This document shows, one piece after another, positions 2,219 through 37,403 of a stretch of DNA of 40,077 bases. Source of the stretch: a virus (lineage: Duplodnaviria; Caudoviricetes); IMG/VR virus record IMGVR_UViG_3300029319_000140, positions 1-40,077 of that record. One strand, 5' to 3'. How positions within the stretch are numbered: position 1 is the stretch's first letter; each line of letters starts with the position of its first letter. The translations under genes and the position numbers were made by a program. Below the pieces are notes generated by a model, which ran no database searches, was not told where the DNA came from, and saw nothing but the letters and a program-made list of their open reading frames with translations.

Positions 2219-2707
2219 ATGAAAAAATTATTGAAAAAAGGCATATTGAAAAATGTCGTAGGTGCAGTAGCTCCTACATTAGGCAGTGCTTTAGGTGGAC
2301 CTATGGGCGGTATGGCTATGAATATGATAGCTGAAAAGTTAGGTGTTCCTAACAATCCAAAAGCTGTAGAGAAAGCTATAGAAAATGCTACACCTGAACA
2401 AATGATAGAGATTAAGAAAGCAGAACAGGCTTTTGATTTACAAATGAAAGAGCTTGATGTTGATGTATTCAAGATGGAAGTGGCAGATGGACAAGATGCT
2501 AGAAAACATTTTAGTAAAGATTGGACAGCTCGTATTATGGGTATTGCTGTCATAGGTGGATTTTTAGGATACATATTCTTAGTAACAATTCAACCACCAG
2601 AGCAAAACTCAGAAGCTTTGATAAACTTAGTGCTAGGATACTTAGGTGGTTTAGCTAGTGCAGTAATAAGTTTTTACTTTGGAGCTTCTAACTCATCTAA
2701 AGAATAG
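2219..2707 (+). CDS. Putative holin (3TM/GTA-holin-like)
   Basis: VAPTLGSALGGPMGG N-terminus, DAR motif, two C-terminal hydrophobic helices ending SFYFGAS. Confidence 0.7.
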   Translation: MKKLLKKGILKNVVGAVAPTLGSALGGPMGGMAMNMIAEKLGVPNNPKAVEKAIENATPEQMIEIKKAEQAFDLQMKELDVDVFKMEVADGQDARKHFSKDWTARIMGIAVIGGFLGYIFLVTIQPPEQNSEALINLVLGYLGGLASAVISFYFGASNSSKE

Positions 2708-2716
2708 GAGAATACT

Positions 2717-2752
2717 ATGAACTGTGAATGTGGATGCGGTTGTGTCAGATAA
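2717..2752 (+). CDS. Candidate 11-aa Cys-rich micropeptide MNCECGCGCVR
   Basis: AGGAG 6 nt before ATG 2717; the ORF overlaps the probable GTG start (2742) of the next gene. Confidence 0.4.
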   Translation: MNCECGCGCVR

Positions 2753-4019
2753 GAAAAAGACTACAATGTTGGACCTAGCAGGTTCACCATCATTTAACTA
2801 TGAGGCAGCGGCAGTGTCATTGAATACTGCCAATGCTACCCGTACATCCAGAAAACTTCAATCTGATTCTGTAGAGATGGATAGAAGAGAGAAGATTCAC
2901 AGAGCATTACAAAACTTTGGACTTGCTACTGCTGGTGCAAGTATAGCCTCTCCTGTAACTGCACCTGTAACAGAGATAGCAGGTGGTGTTGCTGACTTAA
3001 TAGATGGTGTGTTATACTCACTAGAAGGTGAACACGGAAACGCTGCATTATCCTATGCTTCTATCCTACCTGTAGTAGGTGCTGCAGTGGCTGCTAAAAG
3101 AGGGATGAAGTTAGCAGAGAAAGCTGGAGAAGAGCTTGTAGATATATATAGAGGAGTTCCTGAAGAGTTTATGGGAGCAAAATCTATGACAAGATTTGAC
3201 GGTGAACTCTATCACGTAGGAGGAGAGTTTGATGCTTTTAAAAGGCAACATCCAGAAGTATTGTATGAAGGTTTCAAAGCTTCTTACAGAGGTAAAGCAG
3301 ATGATGTATATGCACAGTATTTGCAAACAGGAGAAATTCCTATGATGGGAAGTGGTCCTTTCACACGAGGAAGGTATTTTATGAGAGATGAACCATATCC
3401 ATTCCCATACGGATATTATAATGAATTAAAACCGAGAGGGGTAGATACCAGAGGCAATGTTATTATGGCAAAAAGAGGTGAATACGATTCTTATTTCAGA
3501 CAACAAGAAGAAATGAGAAATCCTTTGTTTTATTTAACTAGCACACATCACTACGGAGGTCGTGGAAGAGCTAAAACCCTTATAAAAGAAGGCGAAGATA
3601 AAGTTTCAACAAGGCTTACGAAAGAGCTACAAGAAGCTATGGGTAAAAATATGCCAAGAACATTGCTAGGAGATGATGCTCTTAGAGCTATGGAAGATAC
3701 TTATCAAAGAAAAGTTACTACAGATAGATTTTTATTTGCTACTGAAGACATCACAGAAGCTCAAAGATATGGTAACACAATTTTACACTTCAAGGTACCT
3801 AAAAGTTATTTAGAAGACATAGCAAAGAGAGATAAAATTAGTGGATTTGGTAGTGAAAAATTTAATAAAGTATCTAATATTATAAATCCAGTCAGAGTAT
3901 CTAAAGATAATTTTACGGGACTGGGTATACAAAGTGAATGGATATTTGATGAGGGAATACCACATAGATTTTTTCACAGAACCTTAGCAGGTATTAGAGA
4001 CTTAAGTGAGATAAGATAA
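2742..4019 (+). CDS. Polymorphic-toxin-like protein A: pre-toxin-like helical domain plus putative ADP-ribosyltransferase-fold domain
   Basis: Start reassigned to GTG 2742 by similarity to the paralog N-terminus. Motifs: ADLIDGVLYSLEGEHGNAALSYASILPVVG; IYRGV; FATEDITEAQRY; ILHFKVP; QSEWIF. Confidence 0.6.
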   Translation: MSDKKKTTMLDLAGSPSFNYEAAAVSLNTANATRTSRKLQSDSVEMDRREKIHRALQNFGLATAGASIASPVTAPVTEIAGGVADLIDGVLYSLEGEHGNAALSYASILPVVGAAVAAKRGMKLAEKAGEELVDIYRGVPEEFMGAKSMTRFDGELYHVGGEFDAFKRQHPEVLYEGFKASYRGKADDVYAQYLQTGEIPMMGSGPFTRGRYFMRDEPYPFPYGYYNELKPRGVDTRGNVIMAKRGEYDSYFRQQEEMRNPLFYLTSTHHYGGRGRAKTLIKEGEDKVSTRLTKELQEAMGKNMPRTLLGDDALRAMEDTYQRKVTTDRFLFATEDITEAQRYGNTILHFKVPKSYLEDIAKRDKISGFGSEKFNKVSNIINPVRVSKDNFTGLGIQSEWIFDEGIPHRFFHRTLAGIRDLSEIR

Positions 4020-5164
4020 TGTCAGATAAGAAAACAACAATGTTAGATTTAGCAGGGTCACCTTCGTTTAATTACGAAGCTGCTGCGGATGCTTTAAATA
4101 CATCTAATACTAGTCCTAAACAAAAAGAATTAAACAGAGCTATTAACTTACGTAATGTAAATACAGCACTAGACCTTGCAGGTTTTGCACCAGGTCCAGC
4201 TGGATTTGCAGCAGATTTTGTAAATACTATCTTATATGGATTGCAAGGTAAGTTTGGAGAAGCAGCTTTATCATCTGTTGCTATGGTGCCTGTAGTTGGC
4301 AGTATTGCTGCTAATAAAAAGTATTTAGAACAACTATATAAATCTGGTGACGAATTTGTTACTTTCTACAGAGGAGTAGATGATAGTGTTCCATTAGACA
4401 AAATGATAGTAGAGCTAGAGGCTATGCCATCAGGAAGAAAATATTTTATGGATGAAGATGTTCCAGATATGTTACACGTAGGAAGTGATTTTCACATACC
4501 TGATGAATTTGGAAGTTTTCCACCAGGAGCAGCCAATCCTATGTATGCAAGAGTAGGTGATGCAGGATGGGAACAAACATTCTTAGGAGCAACAGAAGAA
4601 GGGGTAAGAAATCCAAAGATAGTAGGAAAATATTTAAGTGAAGAAAGAATGGACCCATTCATTAAGTCAATGGTTTCACCAGACTATCCTATGGCAAATA
4701 CAATAATACATACCTCCACTGTTCCAGAGATAGCAATGGATTATGTAAATATAAATTTAAAAGGTAAGGGTACTTTGTTTAGATATGATATACCAGTAAA
4801 AGAATTAAAAAGATTAGCAGACCCTACAACGAAACCTCATATGATGCTAGGACCTGGATTTTTAACAAACGATAAAATATTATTTGAAAAGTATAATTTA
4901 GGCACAGGTTCTTATGGTTCTTTTTCTGGAGGATTTAAACCTATAGGAGATGTATCTATATTTATGAAAGGTATACCACACAAATATAACACGAAGATAT
5001 ATCAAGGAACCTTAGATGAAATAAAAGAACAATTAGTAAAAGGTGGAGATTTAGATGATTATGCAAAGTTTAGAGATGATTATATAACTAACCGAGATTT
5101 ATTTAAAAAGAATATAGAAAGTAAACCATTTGGACAAGCATTAAGGGATGTGACAATAAAATAA
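4019..5164 (+). CDS. Polymorphic-toxin-like protein B, paralog of the upstream gene
   Basis: Same KKTTMLDLAGSPSFNYEAAA leader; ALDLAGFAPGPAGFAADFVNTILYGLQGKFGEAALSSVAMVPVVG; FYRGV; HTSTVPEIAMDY; LFRYDIP; SIFMKGIPH. Confidence 0.6.
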   Translation: MSDKKTTMLDLAGSPSFNYEAAADALNTSNTSPKQKELNRAINLRNVNTALDLAGFAPGPAGFAADFVNTILYGLQGKFGEAALSSVAMVPVVGSIAANKKYLEQLYKSGDEFVTFYRGVDDSVPLDKMIVELEAMPSGRKYFMDEDVPDMLHVGSDFHIPDEFGSFPPGAANPMYARVGDAGWEQTFLGATEEGVRNPKIVGKYLSEERMDPFIKSMVSPDYPMANTIIHTSTVPEIAMDYVNINLKGKGTLFRYDIPVKELKRLADPTTKPHMMLGPGFLTNDKILFEKYNLGTGSYGSFSGGFKPIGDVSIFMKGIPHKYNTKIYQGTLDEIKEQLVKGGDLDDYAKFRDDYITNRDLFKKNIESKPFGQALRDVTIK

Positions 5165-5165
5165 T

Positions 5166-7295
5166 ATGGCAAAAGAAGGAATACTAATACAACGATTTGA
5201 TGGTGGAGTTAATAACAAAGACTCACAGAAAGACTTACCTGAAGGATTCTTAGCAGAAGCAAAGAACATAGATGTAAGTGCAGTAGGTAGAATCAAAACA
5301 CCTGGCAAGTTTGAAGCAGATACGTTTGGCTCAGGTAGCACTAGCATTAGTGTTACTTCACCTTCGTTTGTTGCTAATGCAGGATTGTTTAGCTTTAGAA
5401 CAGATGAAGACATAGCATCAGGTATAGATGCTGGTGAGTTTATTGCATATACCAAAGGTAGTGGAGAAGTATTTATAGGTAATACAGCAGATGCTATGGC
5501 AGAAGAGTTTGATATAAATAGTAATGACCCATCTAACACAGAGCCTGTATACTATTATGCTAATGGTGGATTAAGAGTACAGGATAAAATAAATACAAAT
5601 TCAAGCACTTCAACCTTTGTTCCTTTACCATCAAGAGGTGGTGTATATGAGACAACAGCTGCAGCATATCACGCTACTACTTCTGTACTAACAGCACCTG
5701 ATATGAGTAACGATGTATCAGCATTGTCAAGTGATACAGTAGACCCTAATGTAAGTGGAACTAAATACCACGACCTAGGAGACCCTAACACAAAAGATAT
5801 TACAGTAGCAGTAGAAGCAGTAAGTCCACAAAGTGGAGAGGCAGATGGTTTATGGGCAGAAGGTAAATATGTTATTGGATTAAGCTATGTGTATTTTGAT
5901 GGACAAGAATCTAAAATATCTACATTTAGCACCAACGTTGATATAGCTGATGGTCAAGTAGTCTTAACGTCTGCGGCAATAGCAGATGCAGGTATGAGTA
6001 AATTTATACAAGGTTTCAGAGTATATGCTAAAAACTTTAATGATATAGATGATGAGTTTAGATTAGTATTAGATGTAGATTTAGAACAAGGTTCAAGAAC
6101 TACTTTAGGTGATGACTTTGATGCACTTCAAGATGAAGGAGCTTACTTTCATACTTCAGACCCTAAAGAGGGAACTGCTGCTACCAACCAATACTATGCT
6201 TATGTATTACAAAACCCTAGCTCACTAACATATTCTGCTATTAATGGATTTGATTTAGAAGAACACGCAATCTCTTTTCACGAACTAACATCATACAGAT
6301 ATGATACAGCAGTAGTTGCAAACCAACGTGCTTTTGTGGGTAATGTATTTTATAAAGACACAGATGGTAGGGCAAGAAGACTAGGAGATAGAATACAATA
6401 TACACCTGTAAGAAAGTATGATACATTTCCACAGTCATACTTTTTAGATATAGGAACAAACGATGGTGATGAGATTGTAAAGCTGATGGAGTTCCAAGAT
6501 AGATTGTTTGTGTACAAAAAAAACAAACTATTTATTATTGATATTACTTCTGGTTCTGATGCTAACTGGAGTGTGATTGGAGAGTTTGAGAACAGAGGAG
6601 TGTCAAGTCCAGGAGCAGTAGTAAAAACAGACTTAGGTTTAGTATGGGCAAATGAACACGGTTTATTCGCATTCTTTGATACCATAGTAAAGCTTTCTAA
6701 TGCGATTGATGATAACACTTGGGCAACCAATGTAAACGCTGAGAAAGTGCAGGTTGGATTTATACCAAAAAGAAATCAAATATTAGTGTTAGGTGATACA
6801 AGTTCTAATTCTAGTGCAGGATACATCTATGATGTAGTAACACAATCTATTGTAAACATAGATACATCAAGTGTATTAGTTGGTGACAATGTTTCTAACT
6901 TTATTAGATTTAATCAGGAGTTATGTCTAATGGATGAAACAGGAGAGATGAGAAGATTTAACACAAGCTCAGCCTCACATACCATAGAAATCAAAACAAA
7001 AGAATATGACTTTGGTGTGCCATCATCTGATAAAAGATTACAAAAAGTGTATGTAACACACAAAGCGGGGGACAATCTAACATTGGCAGTAGCCTATGAT
7101 GGTGGTGCGTTTCCAGGGACAAACAAGTTTTCAAGCACTGCATTAAGCACAAGCGGTACAATGACACAAACATCTTTTGTGCCTACAACAGTAGAGAACT
7201 GTAAATCTATGCAGTTTAAGATTACTGGTACAGCAGAGGCAGATTTTGAACTAGAGGATATTACTGTAGTGTATAGAAGAAAGGGAGTTAGATAA
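5166..7295 (+). CDS. Tail nozzle / DNA stabilisation protein (T7 gp12 / P22 gp10-like)
   Basis: 709 aa, beta-rich; N-terminal FDGGVN...NID...GRIK and C-terminal FELEDITVVYR patterns; lies before the internal virion genes. Confidence 0.65.
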   Translation: MAKEGILIQRFDGGVNNKDSQKDLPEGFLAEAKNIDVSAVGRIKTPGKFEADTFGSGSTSISVTSPSFVANAGLFSFRTDEDIASGIDAGEFIAYTKGSGEVFIGNTADAMAEEFDINSNDPSNTEPVYYYANGGLRVQDKINTNSSTSTFVPLPSRGGVYETTAAAYHATTSVLTAPDMSNDVSALSSDTVDPNVSGTKYHDLGDPNTKDITVAVEAVSPQSGEADGLWAEGKYVIGLSYVYFDGQESKISTFSTNVDIADGQVVLTSAAIADAGMSKFIQGFRVYAKNFNDIDDEFRLVLDVDLEQGSRTTLGDDFDALQDEGAYFHTSDPKEGTAATNQYYAYVLQNPSSLTYSAINGFDLEEHAISFHELTSYRYDTAVVANQRAFVGNVFYKDTDGRARRLGDRIQYTPVRKYDTFPQSYFLDIGTNDGDEIVKLMEFQDRLFVYKKNKLFIIDITSGSDANWSVIGEFENRGVSSPGAVVKTDLGLVWANEHGLFAFFDTIVKLSNAIDDNTWATNVNAEKVQVGFIPKRNQILVLGDTSSNSSAGYIYDVVTQSIVNIDTSSVLVGDNVSNFIRFNQELCLMDETGEMRRFNTSSASHTIEIKTKEYDFGVPSSDKRLQKVYVTHKAGDNLTLAVAYDGGAFPGTNKFSSTALSTSGTMTQTSFVPTTVENCKSMQFKITGTAEADFELEDITVVYRRKGVR

Positions 7296-36382: not shown

Positions 36383-36666
36383 TGGCTTACAAGGGTGGAC
36401 TTAGAAAGTGGTTCAGTGAAAACTGGGTTGATATTGGTGCTCCGAAAAAAGGTGGAGGCTTCAAAAAATGTGGGAGGTCAAAACTAAAAGCGGACAAAAA
36501 AAGAAAGTATCCTAAGTGTGTCCCTGCTGCTAAAGCAGCAAAGATGACTAAAGCACAGATTAGAAGTGCGGTTAGTAGAAAAAGAGCAAAAGCACAAGGA
36601 GTAGGCGGTAAGCCAACAAACGTAGCAACATTTGCTAGAAAACAAAATGGGAAAAAAAGAAAATGA
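36382..36666 (+). CDS. Basic phage protein (DUF5872-like)
   Basis: GLRKWFSENWVDI...CGRS...YPKCVP. Confidence 0.75.
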   Translation: MAYKGGLRKWFSENWVDIGAPKKGGGFKKCGRSKLKADKKRKYPKCVPAAKAAKMTKAQIRSAVSRKRAKAQGVGGKPTNVATFARKQNGKKRK

Positions 36667-37403
36667 GTGATAATATAAATGAATTTTTTACTCTTGAGAA
36701 TAGACAACAAAACGGTGCTATAACAGCTGAGGAATATGCAGCACTTAAAAGCTTGAACATAGACATTGATTTTATTGAGAAAAGAGAAGGCTTTAGAACT
36801 GAAGGTTACATTCCAAAAAGAAATGACGGAACAATTTTTGGTAATTCAGGAGTTACTATAGGATTTGGTATTGATTTAGGGCAAAGAAGTTTGATGGATT
36901 TTGTAGGATTTGAAGACCAAGAACTCATAAAAAAATTAGAACCATACTTTGGGCTAAAAAAACAAGATGCTCAAAACTTATTACTTCAAAACATACGAGC
37001 AGGTAATCCTCTTGTTGTTACAGAAGATGAGGCTAATAGATTAAGCAACCATATATTAGAAAACTTGACTGGCACACTTAGAACAAATTTTACAAATCTG
37101 TTTGGTGTAGATTTAGCAGATATGCCACCAGAACTTCAAACTGTTTTGGCTTCTATTGGAACACAATATGGACCAAACTTTTTAGACAATCCTATGACTG
37201 AAGAGTATGACCCAAAGACACCTAAGTTTGCAAAAAAATTACGTGACGTTGTCACTCCTCAAGATTCATTGCTGTCTCTAAATATAGAGGGATATGAAAC
37301 TTTAATTGATGAGCTTAGAAATTTTGGTGATGACTATGACGATAGAAGAGAGGCGGAAGCAGATTTAATACAAGGTTATATAGATGGTATAGGAAGATTT
37401 TAA
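36663..37403 (+). CDS. Pesticin-like muramidase (lysozyme fold)
   Basis: DFIEKREG...YIP...NSGVTIGFGIDLGQ and LRNFGDDYDDRREAEADL. Confidence 0.8.
   Translation: MSDNINEFFTLENRQQNGAITAEEYAALKSLNIDIDFIEKREGFRTEGYIPKRNDGTIFGNSGVTIGFGIDLGQRSLMDFVGFEDQELIKKLEPYFGLKKQDAQNLLLQNIRAGNPLVVTEDEANRLSNHILENLTGTLRTNFTNLFGVDLADMPPELQTVLASIGTQYGPNFLDNPMTEEYDPKTPKFAKKLRDVVTPQDSLLSLNIEGYETLIDELRNFGDDYDDRREAEADLIQGYIDGIGRF

Follow-up and report, generated by a model that had tools for sequence, protein, structure and literature searches.

Two coupled genes in a marine podophage raise the question of whether a phage of about 40 kb carries enzymes of the polymorphic-toxin kind and, if so, in which cell they would act. 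The genes, ORF A and ORF B, lie in the 40,077-nucleotide stretch analysed here (hereafter the window; Duplodnaviria; Caudoviricetes), which is IMG/VR record IMGVR_UViG_3300029319_000140, positions 1 to 40,077.

Two coupled genes with a common plan

ORF A (2742..4019, plus strand; GTG start, TAA stop, 425 aa) and ORF B (4019..5164, plus strand; ATG start, TAA stop, 381 aa) are genuine, coupled ORFs, the start of B sharing nucleotide 4019 with the end of A. A consists of a leader, a pre-toxin-type helical block and a tip of predicted ADP-ribosyltransferase (ART) fold with a 164-aa insert; B follows the same plan with another block subtype and another tip. A Cys-rich mini-ORF of 11 codons (2717..2752, plus strand), also present in locus L002, lies 3′ of an AGGAG, overlaps the start of A and may couple translation to it. 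Upstream, the gene at 2219-2707, labelled holin in an initial sequence-only reading, has phrog_1544, of unknown function, as its sole match; downstream, the gene at 5166-7295, labelled nozzle, matches phrog_511, ‘internal virion protein’, and both names are putative. No ORF occupies the gap between B and this gene, the next ATG being at 5166. Promoter and terminator scans gave chance-level results, RNA runs contained <0.1 of the words of the window, and the Pfam scan of the window covered 26 ORFs. An assembly chimera is unlikely: the same pair occurs in locus L109, and contigs in runs X3 and X6 span the A/B junction unchanged, though X3 and L109 are possibly the source of the window DNA and X6 shares a study with possible sources.

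The leaders of A (2742..2843, plus strand, aa 1-34; a candidate capsid-targeting sequence) and B (4019..4117, plus strand, aa 1-33) contain the longest A/B identity, the 20-aa stretch (A5-24, B4-23) noted earlier. Because synonymous differences affect 15 of the 20 codons and no long DNA repeat is present, recent duplication is ruled out as the origin of the common leader. In phages of the compact type, a DxxAFxxM leader also opens unrelated ORFs (13 matches in a set of 2,549 other ORFs, each within residues 3-8), one of which is a SET domain. The window-type leader was found on block-bearing genes only, and it is a candidate homologue of the DxxAFxxM leader.

A helical block of Rhs-type toxins

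Behind the leader follows a helical block (A, 2874..3122, plus strand, aa 45-127, moderately hydrophobic and Gly/Ala-rich; B, 4136..4342, plus strand, aa 40-108). BLASTP of A against B aligned the N-terminal part only (37% over 177 columns, E 2e-26), as did hhalign of the A and B subfamilies. The block of A is homologous to the segment preceding the toxin domain in Rhs-type proteins; in bacteria it sits between the Rhs core or another carrier and the toxin domain. The Streptomyces protein P0198 has an Rhs core, the block and a DUF3990 ART in that order, and aligns with the compact family across both block and ART core (probability 99%); in P0178 and P0201 the block is followed by AHH, and in P0232 by DUF6883. 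The proposal that the block is a pre-toxin segment of bacterial polymorphic toxins thus holds in this broad, positional sense, but its assignment to PT-TG (PF14449) does not: the PT-TG model gave no match in HMM tests that included 26 members, at E up to 1. Searches of Pfam and similar collections returned nothing for the block beyond weak RTX N-terminal matches. A wide fold search with model A gave generic helical-hairpin matches to residues 40-97 that are uninformative on the block, and pLDDT was <50 in the leader, the block and parts of the inserts.

A predicted ART fold in A and B

A and B had no family match in Pfam, PHROGs, NCBIfam or PADLOC. In structure searches, both tips nevertheless show the predicted ART fold that the sequence-only reading had proposed, at modest Z scores that all stay below 8 with top rows that are consistently ART. 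When model B was compared with 48,161 chains, ART folds filled the top 9 rows (residues about 82-359, Z 5.9-4.5), the best, at 5.9, being TreX. For model A, a second look gave Tpt1/KptA in the top 8 rows (residues 130-424, Z 7.6-6.5), with the core aligned at Z 7.6 and rmsd 4.1 over 89 residues; in the wide search, KptA at rank 43 was the sole ART row. Foldseek returned no match at E 0.001 or better (best E 0.017), and BFVD nothing below E 0.047, the value of DarT, the top viral match of B. Atlas leads for the compact domain were Tox-ART-HYD1 (0.87), TreTu_C (0.86) and TNT-family clusters (0.83). The mixed profile A3 had no match among PDB sequences at E up to 5.

Against Tox-ART-HYD2, DUF3990 and ART-PolyVal, neither A and B nor the compact phage members had a Pfam match; the H-Y-D triad of these families was absent, and the relation is one of profile kinship (21.3 bits versus 10.5 for shuffled sequence). 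A C-terminal-domain profile built from 71 compact relatives scored 34.7 bits on the A tip and 34.0 bits on the B tip, compared with 5.6 and 4.6 for the best of 500 shuffles each. The ordered islands noticed earlier between the two tips are therefore beyond chance.

Tips are exchanged at a fixed site

In near-identical phages from three independent studies, the A tip has been swapped precisely after nt 3148, within the Tyr136 codon and next to the strand-1 Arg137 (3147..3152, plus strand): in single contigs of runs X8, X9 and X11, position 3148 is followed by 921-963 different bases and then by 4016/4028. Loci L002 and L006 are 91-93% identical to the window across 2699-3148, and there the A tip is unaligned save for a 42-nt piece in L006. 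Within B, runs X9 and X11 have 99 different bases in place of insert positions 4588-4677.

Related phages carry further tips on the block. The 111 unique block-bearing ORFs (from 141 loci) ended in 80 ART, 7 GNAT, 4 ‘RSTG’, 1 second ART-like and 9 other tips, with 10 cut, counts that are skewed toward ART because several scans used ART-bearing queries. GNAT tips were Pfam-confirmed in all four tested, with RimI, below cut-off, as the best NCBIfam model; in some relatives the tip is short and helical only. The second ART-like tip (GDxVT), which we presume to be an ART from its motif, did not score above shuffles with the family profile. Tips of one type are found joined to blocks of different clades. 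The full-length profile matched 1,114 representatives, many through the block alone, and the ART-type family has 80 unique members in the fetched loci. A constant N terminus with an exchangeable C-terminal domain, as in polymorphic toxins, is thus what the homologues display; they do not share one invariant structural C terminus, and the polymorphic-toxin-like architecture suggested at the outset is upheld.

Active-site residues and selection

In A, a variable insert (3222..3713, plus strand, aa 161-324) separates strands 1 and 2 and precedes the ART core (3714..3989, plus strand, aa 325-416; F332, T334, A340, Y343, F350, P353, E399 and G405). In B, strand 1 with Arg118 and a variable insert (4355..4684, plus strand) lead into the core (4685..5011, plus strand, aa 223-331; H231, S233, A239, Y242, P259 and G318), which has a hydrophobic residue at the strand-5 position. 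The arginines singled out earlier at 3150 and 4370 are indeed the strand-1 residues R137 and R118. This position is R in 75/78 compact relatives; in the A clade it is H in 26/30 and R in 4/30. E399 is kept in 28/30 A-clade sequences, Glu is absent from 21 B-clade rows and it occurs in 7/78 compact relatives.

Although the ART fold suggested earlier is retained as a prediction, the R-S-E signature with QxE is doubtful: the strand-5 [QE]xE typical of the R-S-E clade is not a feature of the family, Q397 being present in 1/30 of the A clade. When aligned to P0198 by hhalign, F332 and H231 fall on the Y of GFYTT, whereas a weak HMMER match to 4xsg (E 0.1) places S/T at the strand-2 triad position instead. 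The favoured register puts an aromatic residue or His there, so R-S-E is probably the wrong reading of the active site. The predicted triads are R-F-E for A, in a mostly H-F/W-E clade, and R-H-h for B, like TreTu, for which ART activity with an R-H-h site has been described (PMC9825190).

Selection on both cores is purifying (B core, dN/dS 0.13-0.20), and the cleft residues R118 and Y242 are conserved with the core. The inserts evolve fast (0.35-0.62 versus 0.13-0.28 in the core) and may select the target. Packaged, ejected proteins could also be NAD+ glycohydrolases or binders of NAD derivatives, for instance to deplete NAD+ or immune signals of the ADPR type, as would suit the missing strand-5 Glu of B and 71/78 compact relatives, the TNT-family clusters among the Atlas leads and the description of ART folds that are pure NADases, Tne5 among them (PMC13285283). 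Large fast-evolving inserts round the cleft suit recognition of a macromolecule, however, and the sister GNAT tips are other transferases. Draining NAD+ would, moreover, harm a lytic phage, and we regard this explanation as improbable.

The sequence-only reading had also considered a heterodimer and a decoy. A occurs without a partner in L113, where the tip is 96% identical, and B is paired with three different first genes, which makes obligate heterodimer formation unlikely. Absence of the Glu is the family norm, so it does not mark B as an obvious decoy, and with the B core under purifying selection that role is unneeded. More generally, one or both copies might be non-catalytic (structural parts of the ejection path, decoys or sponges) or might form an A/B heterodimer, in keeping with the merely short, helical tips of some relatives, the lack of Glu in B and the finding that close B homologues are the second gene of a pair in 5/5 loci, window included. 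Yet the copies differ in number and location, and B carries an internal deletion in L002, observations that speak against an essential structural role; given also the separate occurrence of the partners and the conserved core, we consider this explanation quite improbable.

Late-gene context without a cognate immunity gene

Of 89 unique ORFs, 88 are accompanied, on the same strand of the same locus, by a homologue of one of the window's late genes; 30 are between TerS and TerL, 9 between TerL and portal, and 5 directly after the largest internal protein. This location speaks for late expression, not for packaging. It is compatible with the earlier idea of virion delivery, in which packaging and ejection themselves are a proposal.

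Late enzymes might instead stay unpackaged in the producing cell. Before packaging, they would modify the DNA of the phage or its virion proteins, for anti-restriction as with Mom, the GNAT-fold protein of phage Mu; alternatively, they would act on host proteins late (lysis timing, superinfection exclusion). Frequent adjacency to terminase genes fits such a role, as do the nucleic-acid ends on which Tpt1/KptA, the best structural match, acts, the DarT match of B and the existence of GNAT tips, Mom being a GNAT-type phage DNA modifier. It would leave unexplained, however, why a conserved leader is common to unrelated ORFs and why the block travels with delivered toxins in bacteria, and the best NCBIfam model of the GNAT tips is RimI. 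On balance it seems unlikely.

As had been noted from the sequence, no immunity ORF is adjacent, and we found no cognate, tip-specific immunity gene downstream. A small downstream ORF follows 25/98 evaluable genes; in several cases it is a single conserved ORF, found behind GNAT tips as well as ART tips. INPHARED contained no isolate, with capsid matches just 22-29% identical, and two pattern scans of contigs in GTDB genomes found no relative and no prophage. A weak search for fusions with MuF, portal or capsid proteins gave none, and a literature search for the string ‘Y-X10-Y’ found no paper. The polymorphic-toxin architecture, the origin from Rhs tips and the MuF precedent (PMC5576092) would agree with particle- or lysogen-borne weapons that kill or arrest competitors or bias the lysis-lysogeny decision. 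The rarity of a downstream small ORF and the lack of a related prophage in the GTDB scans tell against this, and we hold it to be highly improbable.

Proposed function and significance

We lean towards the reading that A and B are capsid-packaged, ejected, host-modifying ARTs of a polymorphic family, building on the architecture, the exchange of tips at one constant breakpoint, the purifying selection on both cores, the late context and the homology of block and ART to a bacterial Rhs tip. The leader would function like the T4 capsid targeting sequence (CTS) and pack A and B into the capsid; the proteins would be ejected with the DNA, the hydrophobic block might help the enzyme out of the ejection path or through the inner membrane, and the two would ADP-ribosylate different host targets. 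Two copies could serve two targets or match two host alleles. An immunity gene would be unneeded because the protein is made late and would act in the next cell. T4 Alt and the CTS are described as precedents for a delivered ART (PMC9026906), and about 44% of phage ARTs are reported in packaging contexts (PMC9503650).

More tentatively, these podophages may have captured the toxin end of Rhs proteins, pre-toxin block plus enzyme, with the capsid as a substitute for the Rhs cage. The result would be an immunity-free, leader-addressed arsenal (several ART types, GNATs, SET domains and unknown folds), swapped at a fixed site at the population level, and a new ART family that switches between H-F/W-E, R-F-E and R-H-h triads.

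Most likely, the A/B cassettes encode effectors that work like T4 Alt or MuF toxins with another targeting module. If so, they would add to MuF fusions, T4-type internal proteins and polyvalent proteins a further route for virion-delivered effectors, and one in podophages, where ARTs were considered rare. An unannotated ART family with natural triad variants becomes available, and a so far unnamed Rhs pre-toxin block would be tied to phage ejection, with a testable role in membrane crossing. The exact, recurrent breakpoint shows that an arms race is under way among marine phages at the population level; the targets would indicate host functions or defences active in the first minutes of infection.

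Comparison with known systems

Like the MuF toxins of temperate phages (PMC5576092), for which capsid delivery has been proposed, A and B combine a constant N terminus with a variable C-terminal enzyme, ARTs included, in a head/packaging module. Unlike them, they match no MuF domain in Pfam, PHROGs or NCBIfam and have a short leader and an Rhs-type block instead; their gene position varies, they often come in two copies, mostly without a downstream small ORF, and they belong to marine podophages rather than temperate Firmicutes phages.

With T4 Alt and the internal proteins that carry a capsid targeting sequence (PMC9026906, PMC5512222), they would share a non-essential late protein, an ART delivered with the DNA and a short N-terminal peptide common to different cargoes, which is established in T4 and presumed here. 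T4 Alt, however, is an R-S-E enzyme of the Alt/VIP2 clade without exchangeable tips, whereas here a minimal Tpt1/TreX-like core with large inserts is found in a 40-kb podophage; ARTs are reported to be encoded by only 3% of podo- and siphoviruses (PMC9503650). Phage polyvalent proteins (PMC5512222) likewise offer a repertoire of host-injected modifiers with ART and GNAT domains, but A and B have one tip per protein on a small carrier, the repertoire arising through tandem genes and tip exchange.

Tpt1/KptA aligns to A in the NAD-binding lobe only (chain residues 91-186), and A differs from it in having Arg, not His, on strand 1 and in evolving rapidly rather than with housekeeping conservation. 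Rhs tips (the DUF3990/Tox-ART-HYD2 protein P0198, TreTu, TreX, TreThr and RhsP2) have an ART core of similar topology, which in P0198 is preceded by the same helical block; the R-H-h site of TreTu resembles B, and the catalytic Glu of TreThr lies, as read by eye, six residues before G-I-P, like E399 of A. Unlike these tips, A and B have no Rhs cage, T6SS module, immunity gene or Pfam match, and they carry inserts of 100-160 aa.

A tandem gene pair with exchangeable tips

The window virus is probably a podophage, because its 40,077 bases encode terminase, P22-like portal, SU10-type capsid and adaptor genes (Pfam, PHROGs). Marine metagenomes contain near-identical sequence; a search for an isolate and host genome of this phage found none. 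ORF A (GTG start, 2742–4019, plus strand, 425 aa) and ORF B (4019–5164, plus strand, 381 aa) overlap by 1 base, and the stop of B lies 2 bases upstream of the next gene's start. As the sequence-only reading had noticed, these coupled ORFs share an exact 20-aa stretch; 15 of its 20 codons differ and therefore, judged from the codons, the peptide is maintained by selection. Similarity between A and B stops shortly past the YRG strand (BLASTP; hhalign of the two subfamilies), and neither protein matched a model in Pfam, PHROGs, NCBIfam or PADLOC.

Word-index searches yielded 51 and 44 relatives, and a profile from 26 relatives matched 1,114 representatives at E ≤ 0.001. Among the best 150 of these, 143 were new, and 71 of the 143 (selected by regex) were compact versions of ~165–345 aa, in which the same helical block precedes a short domain with YRG, aromatic-x-T/S, A-x-x-Y, EFxVP and FxxGxP. 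A profile of the compact C-terminal domain alone scored the A tip at 34.7 bits and the B tip at 34.0 bits, compared with at most 5.6 and 4.6 bits for 500 shuffles each. Because both scores lie far above the shuffles, the tips are, by profile comparison, the compact domain carrying long inserts, and the ordered islands that had been picked out by eye in the diverged tips exceed what chance would give. The family ART domain also follows another N-terminus, with no recognisable block, at L106:6407–7276 and L107:110–979, and in protein P0053 a B-type core is joined straight to the leader.

A census of tips covered 141 loci with 111 unique ORFs that carry the block; repeat fetches were collapsed and close alleles counted separately. 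The tips comprised 80 family ARTs, 7 GNATs, 4 'RSTG' domains, 1 second ART-like type, 9 others and 10 cut by contig ends, a tally skewed toward ARTs by scans with ART-bearing queries; the block is thus also fused to domains other than the family ART. In a block tree (72 columns, rough support), identical tip types fell on separate clades. The 'RSTG' tip (L074:3299–4423, L088:2705–3670, L045:7827–8837; P0169, P0188) has an F-Y/I-R-S-T/S-G motif followed by W-L-P-F-x-G, is fused to the helical block and matched nothing in Pfam.

Close relatives show an abrupt switch: loci L002 and L006 match the window at 91–93% identity over 2699–3148 and do so again from the end of B, or from the following gene, onwards, whereas the stretch in the middle is almost entirely unalignable. 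Eight metagenome runs were compared with the window. Individual contigs of X8, X9 and X11 (three studies) link 3148 to 4016 or 4028 through 921–963 other bases, as does a contig in X3, a possible source of the window; leader, block, B and next gene remain near-identical to the window in these contigs. The breakpoint falls within the Tyr136 codon. In run X15 sequence other than the window's precedes B, and X10 contains a joint from 4035 to 5187. Across 33 metagenome loci the slot was filled by a lone A (L113), by a different A- or B-type gene on its own, or by pairs in various combinations; close B homologues occupied only the second position among the loci compared, and some phages carry family genes behind a 1,280-aa internal protein instead. 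At L002:3824–3985 an in-frame internal deletion, either a real loss or an assembly artefact, cuts B to the leader plus its last 32 residues.

Predicted fold and active site

AlphaFold2 models from 108 (A) and 99 (B) aligned sequences had mean pLDDT of 65.6 and 73.3, with core strands at 85–95 and values below 50 in the leader, the block and some segments of the inserts. Compared with 48,161 chains, model B returned ART folds in all top nine rows, the best matches being TreX (Z 5.9, rmsd 3.8, 113 aligned), exotoxin A (5.5) and KptA (5.5); Foldseek ranked cholera toxin A best (E 0.017). Generic helix pairs dominated the wide search with model A (KptA, Z 6.7), and a second comparison with 153 Foldseek chains had Tpt1/KptA at the top (Z 7.6, rmsd 4.1, 89 aligned), followed by TreX (Z 6.1) and RhsP2 (Z 5.8). 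Despite individually modest scores (every Z <8, no E ≤ 0.001), both tips very probably adopt the ART fold first proposed for them, since independent routes agree. For the tips we favour NAD+-dependent modification of host targets and consider NADase activity or signal depletion quite unlikely.

Both A and B have Arg on strand 1, whereas 26 of the 30 A-clade sequences have His there. Streptomyces protein P0198 has matches to DUF3990 (E 1e-17) and to PARP (E 2e-6); in hhalign of the compact family against it, the family's strand 2 aromatic residue aligns with the Y of GFYTT, the Tox-ART-HYD2 signature (PMC3482391, in excerpt). This register predicts triads R137-F332-E399 in A and R118-H231-V312 in B, with a conserved Tyr 11 residues past the strand 2 residue in each. 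A two-tyrosine motif characterises the diphtheria-toxin group, and this spacing recalls it. The alternative register, R-S-E, comes from a weak match to a C3-type enzyme. Of the original R-S-E reading with QxE in A, the Glu stands (E399 in 28 of 30 A-clade sequences), but Q397 occurs in 1 of 30 and hhalign puts an aromatic residue or His at strand 2. The Glu, whose absence from copy B had suggested different targets, a heterodimer or a decoy, is indeed absent throughout the B clade, but it is also missing in 71 of 78 compact relatives, and dN/dS in B is 0.13–0.20 for the core versus 0.35–0.60 for the insert (three comparisons); in A it is 0.28 versus 0.62 (one informative comparison of two). 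Because TreTu works as an enzyme with an R-H-h site (PMC9825190) and TreThr is classed R-Y-E (PMC13617354), both as excerpted, neither A nor B need be a dead enzyme by analogy, and we regard non-catalytic or heterodimer roles as very unlikely.

The helical block

Two or three helices rich in Gly and Ala make up the block, whose hydropathy peaks at 1.0–1.5. Its proposed assignment to PT-TG was rejected, as the PT-TG model (PMC13483458, in excerpt) matched none of the tested members. In bacterial proteins it does, from domain order, occur in the pre-toxin position: P0198 has Rhs core, block and DUF3990 in that order, and the block precedes an AHH nuclease in P0178 and P0201 (from a cluster that bears the name Flavobacterium) and DUF6883 in P0232. 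The alignment between P0198 and the phage family spans both block and ART core (hhalign probability 99%) and suggests that the phage gene may have derived from an Rhs-type tip. The 732-aa P0187 carries two copies of the block and no recognised enzyme.

Genomic context and leader

In the first 108 loci, 88 of 89 unique ORFs were accompanied, on the same strand of their locus, by a homologue of one of the window's late genes, and 30 of the 89 lay between TerS and TerL. In compact-type phages, 35 of 89 proteins have a DxxAFxxM motif (loose form) ahead of the block. On unrelated ORFs the strict form matched 13 of 2,549 (five distinct proteins, all at residues 3–8) and the loose form 9 of 1,726 unique ORFs; 5 of these 9 matches were early, while early positions make up 13%. 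Packaging-region ORFs beginning with the motif (L071:2718–3116, L018:1686–2069, L020:4892–5329, L025:5638–6090, L059:5595–6254) are candidates for further capsid cargoes; one motif-led ORF is a SET domain (PF00856) and the others are without known function. The motif resembles the T4 capsid targeting sequence, common to different internal proteins (PMC9026906, in excerpt), in likewise standing on different proteins. The window-type leader was seen only on block-bearing genes. Genes so placed might act late within the producing cell, self-DNA modification included, a reading to which we give a minor chance; packaging directed by the leader is the one we prefer.

Lysozyme or peptidoglycan-binding ORFs occupy the TerS–TerL slot in some relatives (L039:7276, L024:311, L030:8552), and the window has a pesticin-like lysozyme amid its head genes (36663–37403; PF16754, E 5e-32). 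Two genes upstream of A lies a thioredoxin-like protein with a hydrophobic N-terminus, conserved in relatives (1821–2216; PF00085, E 0.028); TreX requires thioredoxin as chaperone (PMC11606950, in excerpt), although any link to the present pair would be speculative. The start of A is overlapped by a Cys-rich mini-ORF of 11 codons (2717–2752), which has a ribosome-binding site of its own and is conserved in L002. A fibre-like protein (1–1083) has a Hint-like domain at its end, from a weak match to PF14890 (E 0.049). Relatives, but not the window, encode a 363-aa protein rich in aromatic residues, with a signal-like N-terminus (L010:689–1780, L012:1550–2644, L044:12030–13121), that looks like an outer-membrane barrel.

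As noted at the outset, no immunity gene adjoins the pair, and the window contains none. For 98 evaluable family genes, the next gene was a core late gene in 48, a family gene in 13, nothing in 6, a large unknown ORF in 6 and a small unknown ORF in 25, one of which recurs downstream of both GNAT and ART tips; the corresponding figure for MuF toxins is 89.4% (PMC5576092, in excerpt). That A and B are MuF-type weapons seems highly improbable.

Proposed role

We lean towards a role in which A and B would be synthesised late in infection, directed by the leader into the capsid and ejected together with phage DNA. After membrane passage, the tips would modify host targets in an NAD+-dependent manner, with inserts selecting the targets and tips being exchanged as hosts change. 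This reading builds on observed architecture, tip exchange, selection and gene context and on a predicted fold; packaging, membrane passage, activity and targets are deduced from these. In the literature searched, mostly main texts of open-access papers, no description of this leader–block–enzyme family appeared. In their proposed mode of action A and B resemble T4 Alt, MuF toxins and polyvalent proteins, but they fall outside all three by the tests that define them (PMC9503650, PMC5512222, PMC5576092).
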